A stretch of DNA of 60,778 nucleotides, from IMG/VR virus record IMGVR_UViG_3300005529_000041, positions 1 to 60,778 of that record; one strand, given 5' to 3'. Position 1 is the stretch's first letter; every line of letters begins with the position of its first letter. Under the pieces are notes generated by a model. That model had not been told where the DNA came from. It did no database searches and saw only the letters and a list, made by a program, of their open reading frames with translations. The position numbers were made by a program, and so were the translations under genes. Source of the stretch: a virus (Duplodnaviria; Caudoviricetes). Of the stretch, positions 727-25,617 are shown in pieces.

Positions 727-1111
727 GCGTGCCCAGATCGACTTGGGTGGCCCCCTCCTGCGCGAGCGGGAGGGGTGCAAACTGACAGAGCGATCCTTGT
801 CCTCGCGCCTCTGCGAGGTCATCGAGCGACTGGGTCGCGTGACCGAGGCGGCGATGCCGAGCCTCACCGACACCGAATGGTCGCTCGTATGCTGGGCCGG
901 CTGGGATGCGCTCAATAGTGAGCGCATTCTATCGCGCGAGCGTCCTCAAGATATCGAGCCGCTGGCATGGCAGGCGATCATCGCCGAAGCGGCAGAGCGA
1001 GAGAGCGAGGTTCCCGGCCTCGCCAAGCGACTGCATGACATGAACCCCGTCGAGCGCGTGGCTGTACTGGAGCGCATCGAGGCATATGGACGCGCGGAGG
1101 CGATGCGATGA
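716..1111 (+). CDS. Hypothetical protein
   Basis: ATG 716 overlaps the upstream gene; helical protein MSRERAQIDLGG... Confidence 0.65.
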   Translation: MSRERAQIDLGGPLLREREGCKLTERSLSSRLCEVIERLGRVTEAAMPSLTDTEWSLVCWAGWDALNSERILSRERPQDIEPLAWQAIIAEAAERESEVPGLAKRLHDMNPVERVAVLERIEAYGRAEAMR

Positions 1112-1401
1112 GCGCTGCGCGCAATCGTTGTTGTTAGCAACGCGTCTTTTCACGGCAAGACGGACGAAGAGAATGAAGCGTTAAACGCAGCCGAGAAGCT
1201 GCTCGGCGACGCAGGGATCGACCCGATGATCCGCGAGGAGAGCGCATGAGTTCACGGACGCGGCTGGGTTGCTGCAACATCTCTATACGAAGCGCTCCTA
1301 TGTTTCGCGAACTGACTGGGCGTGAACTTTGGTTGAACAAACGCGCCTATTCATGACGTAATCGCAGCCAGACTCCATGATATTCCAGCATCGTGAGATG
1401 T

Positions 1402-1456
1402 GAGCACCCCGTTTACACCGAAGATGTCGGGAGTTCGATCCTCTCACCGCCCACCA
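1402..1456 (+). other. attP core: 3' part of tRNA-Val(TAC)
   Basis: GAGCA-CCCCG-TTTACAC-CGAAG-ATGTC-GGGAGTTCGATCCTCTC-ACCGCCC-ACCA: anticodon loop, T-arm, acceptor 3' strand and CCA; no 5' acceptor strand; 58 bp from the integrase stop. Confidence 0.9.
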
Positions 1457-1514
1457 TCTTTTCAATGACTTGCGGCGCGCTTTACGAAGTGCTCCCAGTT
1501 CCAAGAACTAGACG

Positions 1515-2753
1515 CTAGTCAATTTGCGTCTCAGGGTTGATGATCTTGGCGTCCGCAACCGCGTCAGGTGGCGCCGGCAACCCTTGCAGTCTGCGATCTA
1601 TTGCCGCTGCAACCGGCCTGAGCACGTCGACTCCTGGCTTGGCATAGATGCGGCGCGTCACATCCGGGCTGCCATGGGCCGCCAGGCGCGAGATCAAGTC
1701 CATCGGATAGCCTTCCTCCTCCGCCCAGCTGACGGCCGTGTGGCGCAGCGTGTGGGGCGTCACGTCGGTCACAAACCGCTGCTTGCCGGGGCGCGTGGGA
1801 TCTGGCTCGTAGGTTCCCAAGCCAGCGCGTTCCACGGCAGCTGCGAATGCCTTCCTGATGCTCTTGACGGGCTTGCCGTCCCATTCGATGACATGATCCG
1901 TCAGGGCGCCGTTCTTGGCCTCGAGAAGCGCTGCGCGTGCCTCCTCAGTCATGGGCACAAGGGCTCGCCCCTTCCTTGCCCTCTTGCTCAGCGGGTCGAC
2001 CTCCTGGCCCTTCTCAGCCCTGAGATCGATCGTCCAGGCGTAGAAGTCAATCTTCGTCCAAATGAGTTCAAGAATGGCCTCGGTGCGGCCGGCGGTTGTG
2101 AGGGCGATGATCACGTACAACCGCAGATGCGGCGTATTCTGACAGGCTTCCCGCAGGCGCAAGAATTCCTCGACCGTCAGGGGGCGCTTCTTTGGGTCCG
2201 GTTTGCGAGGAATCCAGATGTGTTTCTTGCGGTGGATCAGCTCGCGATCGAAGGCCCAGTTGAGCGCCGATCGAAGCCTAAGCAACTCTGTCCATACGGT
2301 GCCGACGCCGATCTTGAGGACAACCGCCTCTGGATTGCCGTCAGGGCCCTTGCGGGTGATCGTGCGGCCGTTGGCCAGTCTCTCGCGGGCGTAGTCGCGG
2401 CAGACATCATCGGTGATGTCGGCGACCCGCATACCCTCGAAACGCTTCTTGAGGGCTTTCCAGTTGTCATGGAACACGGCGATTAGCTTGCCGTCCTTGG
2501 CGCGGTCGGCGACATACTCTTCCCAGATCATGCCTACTGTCAGCCCGTCGCGGCCCTTCAGCGCTGCGAGGTTGCCAACGAAGCGATCAAGCGCGATTCG
2601 ACCCTCTGTCTCGTTGAAGACACCAAGTCGTCGTCGGTGTGGCCCGTCGCCGTCTTTCCAGACGACGACGGCTTCCGGTTGTCCGATCTTGGGGTTGAAG
2701 AGGGTTCCGAGTCGGTACTTCCCGACCTCATACTTCCGCCATTGTCTTGCCAT
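1515..2753 (-). CDS. int: Tyrosine recombinase (phage integrase)
   Basis: Catalytic motifs TAGR..AIL, HTLRH, H..PDVTRRIY; probable start MARQWRK at 2753; adjacent to attP. Confidence 0.95.
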   Translation of the reverse strand: MARQWRKYEVGKYRLGTLFNPKIGQPEAVVVWKDGDGPHRRRLGVFNETEGRIALDRFVGNLAALKGRDGLTVGMIWEEYVADRAKDGKLIAVFHDNWKALKKRFEGMRVADITDDVCRDYARERLANGRTITRKGPDGNPEAVVLKIGVGTVWTELLRLRSALNWAFDRELIHRKKHIWIPRKPDPKKRPLTVEEFLRLREACQNTPHLRLYVIIALTTAGRTEAILELIWTKIDFYAWTIDLRAEKGQEVDPLSKRARKGRALVPMTEEARAALLEAKNGALTDHVIEWDGKPVKSIRKAFAAAVERAGLGTYEPDPTRPGKQRFVTDVTPHTLRHTAVSWAEEEGYPMDLISRLAAHGSPDVTRRIYAKPGVDVLRPVAAAIDRRLQGLPAPPDAVADAKIINPETQID

Positions 2754-2929
2754 TGCTCGACGACCTCCGCCTTGATGCGCCACAGCTTTCCGCCGATAGT
2801 GAAAGCTGGCAGTCCGCCGGGCTCGCCCGCGACGAACTTGCGGATCAGAGCATAGATGGTTTCCTGGGAGCATTCCCAGTGCTCTGCAAGCCTCTGGACA
2901 GTGTAAGGTCGGCGCTCGAGATCAGCCAT
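2558..2929 (-). CDS. xis: Excisionase (HTH_17/MerR-like)
   Basis: YTVQRLAEHWECSQETIYALIR...LPAFTIGGKLWRI winged HTH directly upstream of int. Confidence 0.8.
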   Translation of the reverse strand: MADLERRPYTVQRLAEHWECSQETIYALIRKFVAGEPGGLPAFTIGGKLWRIKAEVVEQWQDNGGSMRSGSTDSEPSSTPRSDNRKPSSSGKTATGHTDDDLVSSTRQRVESRLIASLATSQR

Positions 2930-2941
2930 CGCATAGCTCCT

Positions 2942-3037
2942 TCATACGCCCGCCCTGACGGCGTAGCCCCAGACCAAACCGAGGCAGAGGCCGGAAGTGA
3001 AAGCCACGGCAAGAGCGGCGAAGATCATGATTCTCAT
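2942..3037 (-). CDS. Small membrane peptide
   Basis: MRIMIFAALAVAFTSGLCLGLVWGYAVRAGV*; ATGA coupling with the upstream gene. Confidence 0.5.
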   Translation of the reverse strand: MRIMIFAALAVAFTSGLCLGLVWGYAVRAGV

Positions 3038-3267
3038 TCGCTCTCTGATCTTCGCAGGTCATCGGCAGTCAACCCCGCAAGCATGAAGGTGCGGACTTTC
3101 TCCTCGACGATAACCACCTTGTCAGCCTCGTGGTAGGGACGGCTTGTATTCCCGACAGTCCTTATCTTGTACGATCCAAACAGGAACTTGTTATCGACTG
3201 CTCTTCGCAAATCCTCGATCTCCTGAACGGTATATGTGCGCCCCCTCCTCTCCACCATCTCGCTCAC
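3034..3267 (-). CDS. Hypothetical protein
   Basis: Coupled ORF (GTGA overlap) in the early-left operon. Confidence 0.6.
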   Translation of the reverse strand: MSEMVERRGRTYTVQEIEDLRRAVDNKFLFGSYKIRTVGNTSRPYHEADKVVIVEEKVRTFMLAGLTADDLRRSESE

Positions 3268-3479
3268 GGCTTTGCCTCCCATCCAGGGACATCCAGATCA
3301 TGCTTTGGGGTGTAGACTTCGCCAGTCGGGCGGGGCCAGTCGTCGATGGTGAGGGGCCTATCGGGCTTGCGCCGCTGGCGGTCGCGCTCGAAGCGCATGC
3401 CCTGCCAGAAGCAGATCGCGCTATTGAGGGCGATGACGAGCGCTAGTAGCCACGCCCATGGCGGCAGAATGATCGTCAT
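3264..3479 (-). CDS. Small membrane protein
   Basis: N-terminal hydrophobic helix; GGAG RBS. Confidence 0.6.
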   Translation of the reverse strand: MTIILPPWAWLLALVIALNSAICFWQGMRFERDRQRRKPDRPLTIDDWPRPTGEVYTPKHDLDVPGWEAKP

Positions 3480-3487
3480 CTCCGCTC

Positions 3488-3715
3488 CTATGACCTCGAC
3501 CCAGCAGGGACGCGAATCTTGATAAGGCGAGCCTTGATCAGCTCTTCGAGCCAGAACGTCTGCTCAATGCGGATTTCTGCCTCTTGGCTTTGCGATCTGC
3601 CGCTAAGAGTTGCGGCAGCGTCTAGCCGCCGTTTTGCTTCTGGCGTCACGCGCAGACTTAACGGCACGCGAGGCCCCGGCTCGCATCCCTTGGCTGGGCG
3701 ACCTCTCTTGCTCAT
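3488..3715 (-). CDS. Arc/TraY-like ribbon-helix-helix DNA-binding protein
   Basis: RGRP + VPLSLRVTPEAKRRLDAAATLSGRSQSQEAEIRI. Confidence 0.8.
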   Translation of the reverse strand: MSKRGRPAKGCEPGPRVPLSLRVTPEAKRRLDAAATLSGRSQSQEAEIRIEQTFWLEELIKARLIKIRVPAGSRS

Positions 3716-4029
3716 CGCCTTCCCCACGATCTCGATCTGCGATAAGCCTTCGGCACTACATGGTTGGCATAGCTGCGCTTGATGTGGGCGCTTTCGCCGT
3801 GATCGTCCCTTGTCTTGAGGGCATGACAGCCCTCGCAGAGGATTTGCAGGTTGTCGTCGTCGTCGGTGCCGCCACGCTCTAACGCGATGATGTGGTCAAC
3901 GTCGTATCTGTCGCCGGGACCGAGCTTGCGCTTGCAGGGGCCCTGGCAGCGCCCGTCAGCCCTGGCGAATATCTTCGCGAAACGCAGGGGCGTGATGGAA
4001 TGGCGGCGGTCGTGGTCGAAGGGGCTCAT
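3712..4029 (-). CDS. HNH endonuclease
   Basis: C..PC...DVDHIIALERGG.DDDDNLQILCEGCH..KT. Confidence 0.92.
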   Translation of the reverse strand: MSPFDHDRRHSITPLRFAKIFARADGRCQGPCKRKLGPGDRYDVDHIIALERGGTDDDDNLQILCEGCHALKTRDDHGESAHIKRSYANHVVPKAYRRSRSWGRR

Positions 4030-21621: not shown

Positions 21622-21757
21622 CGGCATCTACATCAAGGGCTGGAAGATCGACAAGGACGGCAACTTTGTCCCCAATCGGAAGCGCCTCGACGTGTCCACG
21701 CGTCTCAAGCAGAAGAACTCTAAGCGCGTGCGCGTCGTCAAACGCAGGACTGCATGA
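21611..21757 (+). CDS. Small basic protein
   Basis: MRLSGIYIKGWKIDKDGNFVPNRKR...; ATGA coupling to the NusG-like gene. Confidence 0.55.
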   Translation: MRLSGIYIKGWKIDKDGNFVPNRKRLDVSTRLKQKNSKRVRVVKRRTA

Positions 21758-22281
21758 GCCAGATCAAGTGGGTCGTCCTCCGCACCCAGCCCATCCATCG
21801 CTGCGAGTTCAAGGTGCTCCACCGCATCACCCAGGCGGAGTACCCCGCTATGCTGCCGTGCGAAGTCGTCTACAAGAAGGAGCCCGGCAAGCGCCACCAT
21901 GTCCAATCCCGCTATGCCCTGTTCCCCACCTACGTTTTCGCCGGCCTGACGGATATTGGCCGCGATTACGACAGTTTGCGCGACAACATTCCCGAGATCA
22001 AAGGCATACTGTCCAGGAGTCGGGCACAATGGTCGCCCTATGTGCTCAGCGAGCCCGAGGTCGAATTCATCAAGAAGCGGGTGGATGAATCCACTGCAAT
22101 GACGGCCGTCGACTTCCACAAGGCTCTGAAGATCGGCAAAACCGTCGAGGTTTCAGTCGGCGGAACCGTTCAGACCACCAAGATCGATGCCATCACAAAA
22201 AAGGGTATCAGGGCCATGCTGCAAATGTTCGGCGCCATGCATGTCATCGAGGTTCCATTCTCGGCGGTGAAGGCCGCCTAG
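21754..22281 (+). CDS. NusG-family antiterminator (NGN + KOW), probable late-gene regulator
   Basis: WVVLRTQP, LFPTYVF, KIGKTVEV..G, MFG...IEVPFSAV; sits at the lambda Q position. Confidence 0.85.
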   Translation: MSQIKWVVLRTQPIHRCEFKVLHRITQAEYPAMLPCEVVYKKEPGKRHHVQSRYALFPTYVFAGLTDIGRDYDSLRDNIPEIKGILSRSRAQWSPYVLSEPEVEFIKKRVDESTAMTAVDFHKALKIGKTVEVSVGGTVQTTKIDAITKKGIRAMLQMFGAMHVIEVPFSAVKAA

Positions 22282-22486
22282 CCACACCGGAAAAAATCCG
22301 CACATAGCGATAAGATTTTGCTTGCGTACAGTTGCGAACCATGAGACAGACTGCAATGTCAAAGTCGTGGCGGTGGCGTTGGTCGCATCGGCGTGCTGGC
22401 CTCTCCCATTGCCCATAAGCCGGGAGCCAAGGTGCCAGGGCCGCCATTCGAGGCGAAGCCCGAAGAGTGACCTGAGTAATCCCCAA

Positions 22487-22702
22487 ATGGCCAATCCCGC
22501 AGTATCCCAGCCTGACGACGATCCGGACGACGCGATTTCCGGAGCTAGGCTTTTCATGGCCATCCGCCCGAGCATGCTGGCGGACATCGAAGACTTCAGA
22601 TTTGCAAACAGATACAAGTCACAAAGCGCTGCCGTTCGCAAACTGTTGGAGCTTGGACTGCGCACCGCAGCTTGGGAAGCGCAGAAAAAGCCCAAGGCAT
22701 GA
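22487..22702 (+). CDS. Ribbon-helix-helix protein
   Basis: LADIEDFRFANRYKSQSAAVRKLLELGL. Confidence 0.75.
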   Translation: MANPAVSQPDDDPDDAISGARLFMAIRPSMLADIEDFRFANRYKSQSAAVRKLLELGLRTAAWEAQKKPKA

Positions 22703-22767
22703 TTTGCAACGAAAGTCAAGATGGAAACGCAGTCACACGCTCCCCAGTCCCGGTAGAGTTGGGAGCC

Positions 22768-22856
22768 CAATGCCGCCCGCTCGTAAAAGAGCGGACTGAT
22801 GAGCCTAAAGGCGAAACGCGAAAGCGTCTCTTAGGCCCTCCCTAGGGCGGTGGTTG
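22768..22856 (+). ncRNA. Hammerhead ribozyme (type I) with a four-way junction on stem I
   Basis: CTGATGA(22796-22802)-GCC TAAA GGC-GAAA-CGC GAAA GCG-TC^(22828); stem I GGA/TCT; outer helix 22768-22778/22845-22856. Confidence 0.88.
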
Positions 22857-22915
22857 TATGGAGGGGCAGGCCGGGGCGTTGTTTCACGTGCAACATAGGT
22901 AAGCTATCCTGACCC

Positions 22916-23101
22916 ATGCCTGCCCGCGAGATCATAGGCTATACATTGGCGCTAGCCGGCCTAGGATGCGCCGTGACGGCCGCCGCGCTTCAGGGTGGGG
23001 CTGTGGCAGCCTGGGGCGCCGCTGGCGCTGGACTGACTTCCCTGGCGGCTGTGATGGGGTACTCGGCGCGGACGCTGGCTCAACCAACGGTGACGAAATG
23101 A
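22916..23101 (+). CDS. Small two-TM membrane protein
   Basis: Two hydrophobic helices; first ORF after the ribozyme. Confidence 0.6.
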   Translation: MPAREIIGYTLALAGLGCAVTAAALQGGAVAAWGAAGAGLTSLAAVMGYSARTLAQPTVTK

Positions 23102-23391
23102 CGATCGGGTACACCTGTGGGTGCACATCTGAGACTTGCCGCCAGCACGGCTGTCAGGCCATGAAGCAGCAAGGCATCGGCGGGGGCGGTGGCGGAACTG
23201 GCGGAACTCGCGGCTGGATTTGCCCGCAGTGCGGGGCTGGCGTTTCCCCTTTCACTGATCGGTGCCCATGCACGGTGCGACCGCCTATGCACCCAAGCGT
23301 GGGCACGGGGACGATAACCGTTCCATTCGCTCCATCAACCAGCATAATATCTGGCGGGGCGGGCGGTGGCTTGGGCAGCACGCTCACCTGA
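23098..23391 (+). CDS. Cys/Gly-rich Zn-ribbon protein
   Basis: GWICPQCGAGVSPFTDRCPC; ATGA coupling. Confidence 0.65.
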   Translation: MTIGYTCGCTSETCRQHGCQAMKQQGIGGGGGGTGGTRGWICPQCGAGVSPFTDRCPCTVRPPMHPSVGTGTITVPFAPSTSIISGGAGGGLGSTLT

Positions 23392-23511
23392 AGCATGACG
23401 GCCCCGGTGCCCTCATCGGGCTACCGAAGCCGTTACATTGCGCACGACGCACTACCAACGCTAACGCAACTCATCACGAAGTGCAATATCCCGTAACATT
23501 GTGACTCAAGT

Positions 23512-23949
23512 ATGGCTGAGACCGATCTCGATCCTCAAGAAACCGCCTTTGTCGCGGCCTATCTTGAGACCACAAACGCCTCAGAATCCTATCGCCGCTG
23601 CAATCCGAAGGCCAAGAAGTGGAAGCCGCAGGCCGTCCACGTCGAGGCATCGAGAATGCTGGCGCGCCCTAATGTGCGCCTAAGGCTTGCAGCTTTGCAG
23701 GCTAAGGTCGAAGAGAAGGGCTTGTTATCATTGGAAGAACACATGGAGGAGCTTAGGAACCTCCGTGAGCTCGCCAAGACCAACGGCCAGCTGAGCGCCG
23801 CTATCCAAGCCGAAGTGAAACGTGGCGAGCTGCGCCGGTTCTACGTGAAGCAGGTCGAGAGCGGCCAAGCTGGCGAGTTCTCCCGGATGAGCGACGAGGA
23901 GCTTGATGCGTTCCTGAACGATGAAGAATTGCCGGTCGTCACGCACTGA
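23512..23949 (+). CDS. terS: Terminase small subunit
   Basis: QETAFVAAYL...NASESYRR...ASRML..PNV; immediately upstream of terL. Confidence 0.85.
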   Translation: MAETDLDPQETAFVAAYLETTNASESYRRCNPKAKKWKPQAVHVEASRMLARPNVRLRLAALQAKVEEKGLLSLEEHMEELRNLRELAKTNGQLSAAIQAEVKRGELRRFYVKQVESGQAGEFSRMSDEELDAFLNDEELPVVTH

Positions 23950-23952
23950 CGC

Positions 23953-25617
23953 ATGCACATCCGTTCCGCTGGGCGCCTGCTGAAAGAGCGCAAGGCCGCC
24001 GCCAAATGGGAAAAGCTGCTTCGGGAGGAAAGGAAACGCCAAGCGGACCTTGATGGTGGCCTGCTCCACTTCGTCCGCTACTTCTGGCATGTGCTCGAGC
24101 CCAGCAAGGAACTGGTAGAAGGCTGGGTGCTCCATGCGATCTGCGCCCATCTCGAGGCCGTAACGCGGGGCGAGATCAACCGGCTTCTGATCAATGTTCC
24201 GCCGGGCTTCATGAAGAGCATGCTGGTCAATGTTTTCTGGCCAGCATGGGAATGGTCGGCGGCCGGCCTGCCAAGCATCCGCTACGTGACGTTTTCATAT
24301 GCAGCGCATCTCACAGAGAGGGACAACGGCAAGTTTCGCGATCTGCTGCGCTCCAGAGAGTTTCACGAACTCTGGGGCCACGCCGTCACGCTGACGGAGG
24401 ATGGCAAGATCAGGGTGGCCAACGATGCCACAGGCTGGAAATTTGCATCCTCAGTCAAGGGCGTCGGCACGGGTGAGCGCGGCGATCGCGTAATCCTCGA
24501 TGACCCGCACAACGTCAAGGAAGGTGAAAGCGAGGCCGTCAGGTCGGAGACGGTTCGCTGGGTGCGGGAAGGCATGTCCAACCGCCTCAATGACATGGAG
24601 ACCGGCGTTATTGTATGCATTATGCAGCGTGTCCATGAGGAGGACGTTTCCAACGCGCTGATCGCCGATGATCTTGGCTATGTGCACCTGATGGTGCCGA
24701 TGGAGTTCGACCCGGCAAGGCGTTGCGGAACCGCGATCGGCTGGGAAGACCCGCGGGAAGACGACGGCGAGCTGGCTTGGCCTGAGCGTTTTTCCCCATC
24801 GGCGGTTGCCCAACTCAAGCGCACGCTAGGACCATACGCCTATTCCGGCCAGTATCAGCAGTCGCCAGAACCCCGCGGCGGCGGCATCATCAAGCGAGCA
24901 TGGTGGGGTACTTACGAGCTCGCGATCGGCGCCAAGCCAAAGCACAGGCCAGAGTTCGTCGTTGCTTCTCTTGATCCGGCCTTCACAGCCAAGCAGGAGA
25001 ACGACCCGAGCGGCTTCGTGATCCTCGGCATCTATCGGACCGAAAATGGTCAGCCGCGCATTCTGTTGATGCATGCATGGAAGAAGTGGCTGGAGCTTCA
25101 CGGCCAAACCCAGGATCGAGACCCCAAGGAAACCAATGTTGCCTTTCTGAGGCGAACCCAGCCGCATTGGGGTCTCGTCGAGCAAGTGGCGCACGATTGC
25201 ACGCGGTTGCGCGTCGACAGGCTACTGATCGAGGATAAGGCTTCCGGTCATTCAGTGGCCCAGGAGATCAGGCGGCTCTATTCGGATCGCGACTGGGGCG
25301 TGCAGCTCGTCAATCCAGGTTCACTGGACAAGAGGGCCAGAGCTTACGCCATTCAGCATCTCTTTGCTGATGGCCTGATCGAAGCGCCCTACGACGACAA
25401 GTCGGGCCAATTCCGCGAATGGGCGCAGATGGTCATTGACGAGGCAGCGAAGTTCCGCGGCCTGCCAGGAGATGAAGACAACCTTGTCGATGCTCTCACG
25501 CAGGGCCTGAAATACCTGCGGGACAACAACCTGATCGTGCGCCGCGAAGAGCGCGAATACAACGAGCGTGAATCCATGCTGCATCGTACGAAGCGTGAGC
25601 CGCTTTATCCAGTATAG
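23953..25617 (+). CDS. terL: Terminase large subunit
   Basis: LLINVPPGFMKS, ILDDPH, MQRVHEED, GQYQQ.P, SLDPA, IEDKASG, DNLVDALTQ. Confidence 0.95.
   Translation: MHIRSAGRLLKERKAAAKWEKLLREERKRQADLDGGLLHFVRYFWHVLEPSKELVEGWVLHAICAHLEAVTRGEINRLLINVPPGFMKSMLVNVFWPAWEWSAAGLPSIRYVTFSYAAHLTERDNGKFRDLLRSREFHELWGHAVTLTEDGKIRVANDATGWKFASSVKGVGTGERGDRVILDDPHNVKEGESEAVRSETVRWVREGMSNRLNDMETGVIVCIMQRVHEEDVSNALIADDLGYVHLMVPMEFDPARRCGTAIGWEDPREDDGELAWPERFSPSAVAQLKRTLGPYAYSGQYQQSPEPRGGGIIKRAWWGTYELAIGAKPKHRPEFVVASLDPAFTAKQENDPSGFVILGIYRTENGQPRILLMHAWKKWLELHGQTQDRDPKETNVAFLRRTQPHWGLVEQVAHDCTRLRVDRLLIEDKASGHSVAQEIRRLYSDRDWGVQLVNPGSLDKRARAYAIQHLFADGLIEAPYDDKSGQFREWAQMVIDEAAKFRGLPGDEDNLVDALTQGLKYLRDNNLIVRREEREYNERESMLHRTKREPLYPV

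Follow-up and report, generated by a model that had tools for sequence, protein, structure and literature searches.

The window analysed here, the whole 60,778 nucleotides (nt) of the IMG/VR virus record IMGVR_UViG_3300005529_000041 (rated 63% complete), carries between two regulator-type genes and the terminase genes an RNA element that is probably a structured leader heading the packaging and late genes, consisting, to judge from its sequence, of a scaffold and a self-cutting type I hammerhead ribozyme. The scaffold is predicted to contain a hairpin (P0), an outer helix (P1) and two pseudoknots, in which the 3′ tail would pair with the P0 loop (PK1) and with a loop on the stem I side (PK2). 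The hammerhead would be set atop P1, which in the lineage of the window is achieved through a putative four-helix junction with two further hairpins (A and B) and a stem I of 3 base pairs (bp). The hammerhead that accompanies the double-pseudoknot scaffold is branched in some loci and unbranched in others, and in one locus (L381) there is no hammerhead at all. As judged from the aligned sequences, hairpins A and B are lineage-specific and the conserved periphery is the double pseudoknot. The element is a new structural variant of a known ribozyme class, situated inside an uncatalogued RNA scaffold.

The hammerhead core and its scaffold

The first-pass annotation of this DNA had described a complete type I hammerhead, and its core and stems are confirmed base for base (Table 1). 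Stems II and III are closed and stem I is open, which is the type I topology, and the core nucleotides C3, U4, G5, A6, N7, G8, A9, G12, A13 and A14 are all present. The window contains the core pattern, with its spacers fixed, a single time, also when one mismatch is allowed, and none of 100 dinucleotide-preserving shuffles contains it. As all known features of catalysis are in place and the stems covary, a cut after C22828 would be expected. The annotation had further described a short stem I that opens into a branched junction, and this too has held, stem I being 2-3 bp long and the junction being kept with compensatory changes in nine homologous rows. Its description of the junction as perfect is correct for the window, where the four helices are joined without unpaired nucleotides, and fails across the family, where the outermost (third) pair of stem I is non-canonical in four of the nine rows.

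The element extends further than had been drawn. About 30 nt on the 5′ side, which form P0, and about 20 nt on the 3′ side had been overlooked, and both join the described part in two covarying pseudoknots. Within the P0 hairpin the loop contains a conserved CAG...GUAGAGUU together with the 5′ strand of PK1. The outer helix had been placed at 22768-22778 with 22845-22856; its inner portion, P1, covaries, and 22768-22771 with 22853-22856 has no covariation support. The 3′ strand of P1 in the window contains a 3-nt insertion relative to the homologues, and two registers are possible. For hairpin B, originally given 4 bp, the fourth pair (G22835-C22841) is found in only five of the nine homologues, and C22841 pairs in PK2 in all nine. 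Two alternative pairings that had been proposed to act as a switch were not sustained. CCUAA/UUAGG is paired in 47.7% of cells, which is under the shuffle mean, and shows no covariation; GCCCU/AGGGC reaches five of five pairs only in the window, where it uses the window-specific insertion, and one to three of five in the eight other rows.

Table 1. Positions of the RNA element, its parts and the neighbouring genes in the window, with pairing in the nine-row alignment
Feature	Position	Strand	Cells paired	Pairs changed on both sides	Basis or remark
Whole element	~22739-22876	+			hammerhead within scaffold P0-PK1-P1-PK2
P0 hairpin, GCUCCC/GGGAGC	22739-22744 with 22761-22766	+	96.3%	2/6	
PK1, UCCCGGU/GCCGGGG	22748-22754 (P0 loop) with 22870-22876 (3′ tail)	+	98.3%	4/7	
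P1 outer helix, GCCGCCC/GGGCGGU	22772-22778 with 22845-22851	+	100%	5/6, plus 1 invariant C-G	6 varying pairs all kept
Hairpin A, GCUC-GUAAAA-GAGC	22779-22792	+	100%	4/4, plus 1	branch specific to subgroup
Stem I, GGA/UCU	22793-22795 with 22829-22831	+		2/3	3 bp: A-U, G-C, G.U
Hammerhead catalytic core with stems II and III	22796-22828	+			read from sequence
Core CUGAUGA	22796-22802	+			read from sequence
Stem II, GCC-UAAA-GGC	22803-22812 (22803-22805 with 22810-22812)	+	100%	1/3	read from sequence
Core GAA	22813-22815	+			read from sequence
Stem III, A-CGC-GAAA-GCG-U	22816-22827 (22816-22819 with 22824-22827)	+	100%	2/4	read from sequence
C17 (C22828)	22828	+			predicted cut 22828/22829
Hairpin B, UAG/CUA (UAGG-CCCUC-CCUA)	22832-22844	+	92.6%	1/3	possible fourth G-C pair; weak, mostly sequence-conserved
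PK2, CCCUCC/GGAGGG	22836-22841 (hairpin B loop and 3′ shoulder) with 22860-22865	+	100%	5/7	
NusG-like transcription antiterminator gene	21754-22281	+			Pfam PF02357 3.5e-07; phrog_6386 5.6e-11
RHH-like repressor-type gene	22322-22702	+			phrog_4738 3.4e-07, residues 81-114
Terminase small subunit (TerS) gene	23512-23949	+			PF03592; phrog_51
Terminase large subunit (TerL) gene	23953-25617	+			phrog_38 5.1e-75

The pair counts derive from nine rows, which represent eight lineages (L254 and L263 are near-identical) and were realigned to a covariance model built from seven sequences with nested helices only, the pseudoknots being added for the count. In this alignment 97.4% of the cells are paired, compared with 79.9 ± 1.3% after shuffling, and none of 500 shuffles reaches that value. 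Changes on both sides are seen in 27 of the 45 pairs, as opposed to 13.0 in shuffled alignments and 2-4 after displacement of the 3′ partner by 1-3 columns, and every helix, PK1 and PK2 included, has at least one such pair. Support for the nested helices leans on the model used for the alignment; the pseudoknot columns were not modelled as pairs, so that the support for PK1 and PK2 is independent of it. Covariation across related phages, to which the first-pass annotation had looked for confirmation, is thus found in these rows for the junction helices and for both pseudoknots. A conserved G.U or U.G pair is present at columns 40-129 in all nine rows and another at columns 22-146 in eight; these pairs exist only on the + strand, which is therefore assigned as the strand of the element.

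The catalytic positions are equally well kept. C3-A9 and G12-A14 are retained in all nine rows, as are G10.1-C11.1 (columns 76-85, always G-C) and A15.1-U16.1 (columns 89-101, always A-U). The positions N7 and H17 vary only as the class permits: C7 is found in L325 and L380, and position 17 is C in eight rows and A in L328. Stem II consists of 2-3 bp (2 bp in L339) closed by a tetraloop in all rows, and the loops are variable, UUCG and UAAA among them.

Folding energy is unremarkable and does not choose between the strands, and for this reason the case is built on the comparative evidence. The 89-nt segment folds at -36.2 kcal/mol on the + strand (z -2.77) and at -38.6 kcal/mol on the - strand (z -3.89), and a 155-nt stretch has a z of -1.78, with P0 present in its minimum-free-energy fold.

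Relatives with and without the ribozyme

The branched subgroup was assembled by several scans. The core pattern with the spacer lengths of the window found G001/L025, in a 43-kb record rated complete, and in metagenomes L254, L263, L264, L279 and L287. A scan anchored on the conserved motif of the P0 loop found L325 (G003) and L328 (G002, rated complete), and from the same scan the covariance model picked L339. Use of the P0-loop sequence alone, with no hammerhead letters, found L380 and L381. Four pattern scans of GTDB representative genomes gave no branched member; L031, taken from a GTDB scan, proved to be a chance match in coding sequence. The element in the window is 73.6% identical to that of G001/L025 over 110 nt. 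A tblastn search with ten neighbouring window proteins against G001 gave no match, that with TerL none over the whole record; the NusG-like protein as query found no relative among viral contigs, and blastn with 21754-23949 gave no match among INPHARED phage records.

Individual loci of the subgroup display some further features. The element at L254 has 61% G+C compared with 45% for its contig. In L287 the tail motif GGAGGGGCA(A/G)GCC, which comprises the 3′ strand of PK2 and the start of PK1, lies at 1568-1580 and is repeated 68 nt downstream at 1636-1648, where it may be an alternative partner or a remnant. The element of L325 (G003) is flanked by 18-nt hairpin-like repeats (3660-3677 and 3873-3890) and by 15-nt repeats (3696-3710 and 3958-3972). 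The ends of the G001 and G002 records are overlaps of 127 and 123 bp, respectively, which are taken to be assembly overlaps; the nearness of the element to those ends is in that case uninformative with respect to cos or pac sites.

Over its positions 1-150 the model also matches other phage type I hammerheads, and altogether there are 23 full-length matches of 25-163 bits. These include L023 (the same as L028 and L262; 80 bits), L020 and L021 (64-67 bits), L249 (60 bits), L294, L278, L017 (the same as L019), L005/L018/L029, a second tandem copy in L029, L022, L137, L148 and L188. Ordinary phage hammerheads are matched at core positions 59-97 only, with 18-25 bits. In the relatives of this wider family stem I is 4-6 bp long and unbranched, and hairpins A and B are absent (hairpin A is missing in the L023, L020 and L005 types and is kept in L249). 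Many of the stem II loops are GNRA-like. What is kept is P0, P1, PK1 between the P0 loop and the tail, and PK2, here formed between a bulge on the 3′ side and the tail. [quoted passage not shown] Given that hairpins A and B are dispensable in at least 12 related sequences in which P0, PK1, P1 and PK2 remain, the junction is unlikely to be the main substitute for it.

At the distance of the wider family the pseudoknot columns are not reliably aligned, and the loop or bulge of each sequence was therefore tried for pairing with its own tail and with those of the other 20 non-redundant rows. For PK1 the mean free-energy change is -14.5 with the own tail and -8.45 with other tails, the own tail ranking first in 16 of 21 rows; for PK2 the values are -11.45 and -7.96. 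In both cases none of 5000 permutations was as good.

The cultured alphaproteobacterium Marinibaculum pumilum (L243/L385) has an unbranched member in which each of the four scaffold helices can be read; when 151 genomes of the same class were searched with the model, 20 candidates being scored in each, only the Marinibaculum genome gave a match. At L020 the element has about 53% G+C and the contig 37.6%. L029 contains two diverged unbranched elements in tandem on the - strand (2555-2699 and 2727-2877), about 28 nt apart, and cleavage at both copies would release an RNA of approximately 170 nt. A TTGAC(T/A) hexamer is located some 35-70 nt 5′ of P0 in Marinibaculum (L385:1430-1460) and in G002 (L379:7545-7575), which hints that some copies start a transcript; a consensus promoter scan called neither hexamer and reported one weak promoter-like site in the G002 locus. 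A generic type I pattern gave at least 120 matches, of which L116-L193 were read by script and the rest by model search. Among viral contigs, L160, L192, L175 and L146 carry arrays of 4-7 ordinary type I hammerheads, each just 5′ of a ribosome-binding site and start codon. This is an arrangement described by Perreault et al. 2011 (PMC3088659).

The two loci found without hammerhead letters stand apart from the others. L380 scores 133 bits and is branched, with C7, an A.A opposition at 10.1/11.1 and a U15.2-A16.2 pair; it retains C3, U4, G5, A6, G8, A9, G12-A14, A15.1-U16.1 and C17. L381, in a record rated 93% complete, scores 63.5 bits and has the P0 loop of the subgroup. Its P0, PK1 (GUUCGG/CCGAAC), P1 (GCCCGC/GCGGGU) and PK2 (CCCUCU/AGAGGG) are intact, and a 21-nt loop replaces hairpin A, stem I and the whole hammerhead; no hammerhead descriptor matches anywhere in the 7.4-kb locus. 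The pseudoknot sequences of L381 are unlike those of all other rows yet still pair, from which the scaffold appears, in this one example, to be maintained without a ribozyme. This suggests that the scaffold has a role of its own.

Both loci have peculiarities in their surroundings. In L380 an open reading frame (ORF) at 1612-2298 matches only the first part of a large-terminase profile (phrog_2), and an HNH endonuclease ORF (2288-2818) comes directly after it, an arrangement suggestive of endonuclease insertion within or beside TerL. The L381 scaffold (628-731) is bracketed by a 27-nt direct repeat (564-590 and 734-760; 96% identity, 170-nt spacing) that may be the trace of an insertion, deletion or recombination.

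These relatives bear on the question of whether P0, PK1, PK2 and the junction are simply an aid to ribozyme folding that replaces the contact which stem I makes with stem II, for example by presenting the PK2 helix to the stem II loop. In known type I hammerheads, bulges of stem I contact stem II, and PK2 begins 3-7 bp from the core, at the place where those bulges touch stem II; its position is inferred to be that in which the contact would be expected. The brevity of stem II in all rows and the many GNRA-like loops are in keeping with such an arrangement, as is the requirement of natural hammerheads for tertiary support at physiological Mg2+, which pseudoknots often supply (Perreault et al. 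2011, PMC3088659). It is nevertheless an unlikely account of the scaffold, in that L381 keeps all four scaffold helices with compensatory pairs of its own and no hammerhead, the pseudoknots do not involve stem II as they do in the pseudoknot hammerheads described so far, and stem II loops such as UUCG and UAAA follow no single loop-receptor rule.

Another possibility is that the RNA acts without self-cleavage, its hammerhead-like core being a relic that has lost activity or a three-way junction with a purely structural role. The extreme shortness of stem I with its mismatched third pair, the 2-bp stem II of L339, the A.A opposition of L380, scores that lie under the Rfam thresholds and the existence of L381 all point in that direction. 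Such a core is, however, most improbable: the catalytic positions are kept in every row that bears a hammerhead, including L380, which was found independently of its core, the variation at N7 and H17 stays within what the class permits, and stems II and III covary. Moreover, active hammerheads with a stem II of 1-2 bp and with mismatched 10.1/11.1 have been reported (Perreault et al. 2011, PMC3088659).

Several results weigh against the element being a self-cutting leader of the late genes. An Infernal search against the Rfam hammerhead models, named in the first-pass annotation as a way to check its proposal, returned no hammerhead at gathering score: there were no matches at all at the gathering cut-offs in the whole window, and no hammerhead match in 17 family loci. 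The models included Hammerhead_1, Hammerhead_3, Hammerhead_II, HH9 and HH10. In E-value mode Hammerhead_3 is the sole hammerhead model to match the window, with 23.2 bits, and it gives 25.4 bits on the core alone, compared with a cut-off of 48.5; in the 23.2-bit alignment hairpin A takes the place of stem I and the cleavage triplet is lost. The E-values of the covariance model are rough, and when the pseudoknots of these GC-rich RNAs are shuffled sequence by sequence, each result taken singly is weak. In part the core is invariant by construction, as the patterns used to find most members had the core fixed, although this worry is eased by L380, whose core is intact. No pairing partner was found for the 4-nt stem II loop that might form a contact with stem I, which itself has only 2-3 bp. 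Neither the descriptor, the regular expression nor the covariance model (E ≤ 0.1) detected the element in the best 80 of 598 matched TerL relatives, and it is thus not needed for late expression in related packaging modules. From L381, finally, it follows that cleavage is not essential to the job of the scaffold.

The genomic address of the element

In the window the element is on the coding strand, between the NusG-like and RHH-like genes on one side and the packaging genes on the other, as the first-pass annotation had stated. P0 starts 37 nt after the end of the RHH-like gene, which is without a Pfam match, and the element fills the 213-nt gap between that gene and the next ORFs. TerS and TerL constitute the first recognisable late or packaging module 3′ of the element; a portal gene is also downstream, and all of these are on the + strand. 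A 20-nt direct repeat, GATTTGCAA..CAAG, is present 5′ of the element at 22599-22618 and 22701-22720 (75% identity), the second copy running across the RHH-like gene's stop codon; the repeat may be an operator or promoter element.

Across loci the element is usually found upstream of HNH endonuclease or terminase genes. TerL lies about 1 kb downstream in G001, TerS and TerL are just across the end of the record in G002, and L381 has TerL and portal genes downstream, to which L380 adds an HNH endonuclease. An HNH endonuclease follows in L254 and in L325, in the latter with a tRNA in between (G003, L374:1910-1982, about 300 nt downstream). In the wider family, TerL is downstream in L018 and an HNH endonuclease in L020. 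Exceptions are L023, which is followed by a ParB/methyltransferase gene, and L339, in which the element (2715-2863) stands within a cluster of 11 tRNA-type Rfam matches (1053-3585) that precedes a recombinase-like gene.

Late-operon antitermination sites are known beside antiterminator genes, as in lambda Q/qut, the put RNA of HK022 and the leader hairpin of LoaP, and lambda qut/PR′, which lies after gene Q, invites comparison with the position of the element. The scaffold could be chiefly a regulatory leader that works with the NusG-like antiterminator encoded upstream, giving the late operon a signal for RNA loading or antitermination, with the hammerhead as a trimming or releasing addition. 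A NusG-like gene (phrog_6386 and/or PF02357) is directly upstream in five of the nine loci that have at least 1 kb of upstream sequence, namely the window, G001, L279, L325/G003 and L381. In L381 the element, with its helices intact and no hammerhead, begins 13 nt past the stop codon of that gene. Between the window and G001 the NusG-like proteins have diverged too far for tblastn while the RNAs retain the identity given above, and the P0 loop of the subgroup carries conserved unpaired letters (GUAGAGUU). A role of this kind is nonetheless doubtful. The G002 record, with a completeness rating of 100%, has the element and no phrog_6386 match, and no NusG-like gene was seen in the examined parts of L254/L264, L287 and L339 or, with a small custom hidden Markov model, in 20 wider-family loci. 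Promoter and terminator scans of 22200-23300 called no site, and the absence of a terminator-like site there speaks against an antitermination signal. The tandem copies of L029 and the tRNA cluster of L339 fit RNA processing better than a single operon switch.

Proposed working and relation to known ribozymes

The preferred interpretation, a self-cutting leader of the late genes, would operate as follows. Transcription of the region would either run in from the regulatory genes upstream or start at a promoter close by, and the hammerhead would fold after P1 and both tail pairings have formed. A cut after C22828 would leave the upstream RNA with a 2′,3′-cyclic phosphate and the late mRNA with a 5′-OH at U22829, the UCU of the 3′ strand of stem I becoming the beginning of the downstream product. 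The two halves may stay joined by P1 (7 bp), stem I (3 bp) and PK1 (7 bp), approximately 17 bp in all. In a lone 3′ piece, PK2 would turn into a stem-loop, separated by a few nucleotides from the 5′ end created by the cut; about 10 of 23 isolated 3′ products show PK2 as such a 5′-proximal hairpin in the minimum-free-energy fold, which suggests a structured 5′-OH end of the late mRNA. The outcome would be a late message that is uncoupled from the early one and has a defined, structured 5′ end. Hammerheads flank genes in prophages and have been proposed to process long phage transcripts (Perreault et al. 2011, PMC3088659).

The element shares with the type I hammerheads of phages and prophages (Perreault et al. 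2011, PMC3088659; Rfam clan CL00010) the core, the three-helix core junction and the topology, as well as an intergenic location on the coding strand of a phage operon and a very short stem II. It differs from them in that a stem I of 2-3 bp branches into a four-helix junction and the ribozyme is placed inside a scaffold of about 140 nt with two pseudoknots, and from the clan in that no model reaches gathering for the window or for the 17 family loci. With pseudoknot-stabilised hammerheads it has in common Watson-Crick pseudoknots outside the core that are probably needed for the active fold; in those ribozymes the pseudoknot joins the stem I loop to stem II or its tail (Perreault et al. 2011, PMC3088659), whereas here the tail 3′ of P1 takes part in both PK1 and PK2, and stem II is a closed 3-bp hairpin. 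Among titles and abstracts in the literature no natural hammerhead with a branched stem I and no such scaffold was found; the supplementary alignments of the 2011 survey (PMC3088659) may list members.

Two further systems offer partial parallels. The leader sites of lambda Q/qut, HK022 put and LoaP are known to resemble the element in position only, being structured leaders after an antiterminator-type gene and before late or packaging genes; they differ from it in that the element holds a ribozyme and has a NusG-like neighbour in only five of nine informative loci. In the natural hairpin ribozyme a four-way junction joins the two catalytic domains. The likeness here is one of mechanism, both being small nucleolytic ribozymes in which a junction could pre-organise the active fold at low Mg2+. 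Unlike the hairpin ribozyme, the element belongs to another class with another active site, and its junction branches stem I off the core and is dispensable in relatives.

As a more speculative extension, offered with little confidence, the P0-PK1-P1-PK2 module could be an autonomous and undescribed phage leader that acts at the switch to late transcription, possibly with a NusG-like partner, where the ribozyme half, once cut, would remain paired to the late mRNA as a knotted 5′ cap that protects it and the module would be mobile between unrelated phages.

Hammerheads are the best-studied small ribozymes, and their role in phages is largely guesswork. The element presents a new build of the hammerhead periphery, which combines a stem I of 2-3 bp, a four-helix junction and two pseudoknots that make no contact with stem II. 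As the element has a fixed address at the boundary between early and late genes, often with a NusG-like antiterminator next to it, a concrete function can be put to the test, and L381, where the scaffold survives without the ribozyme, provides a natural control. The sequences are missed by current Rfam thresholds, and such ribozymes are therefore probably under-counted in viral metagenomes.

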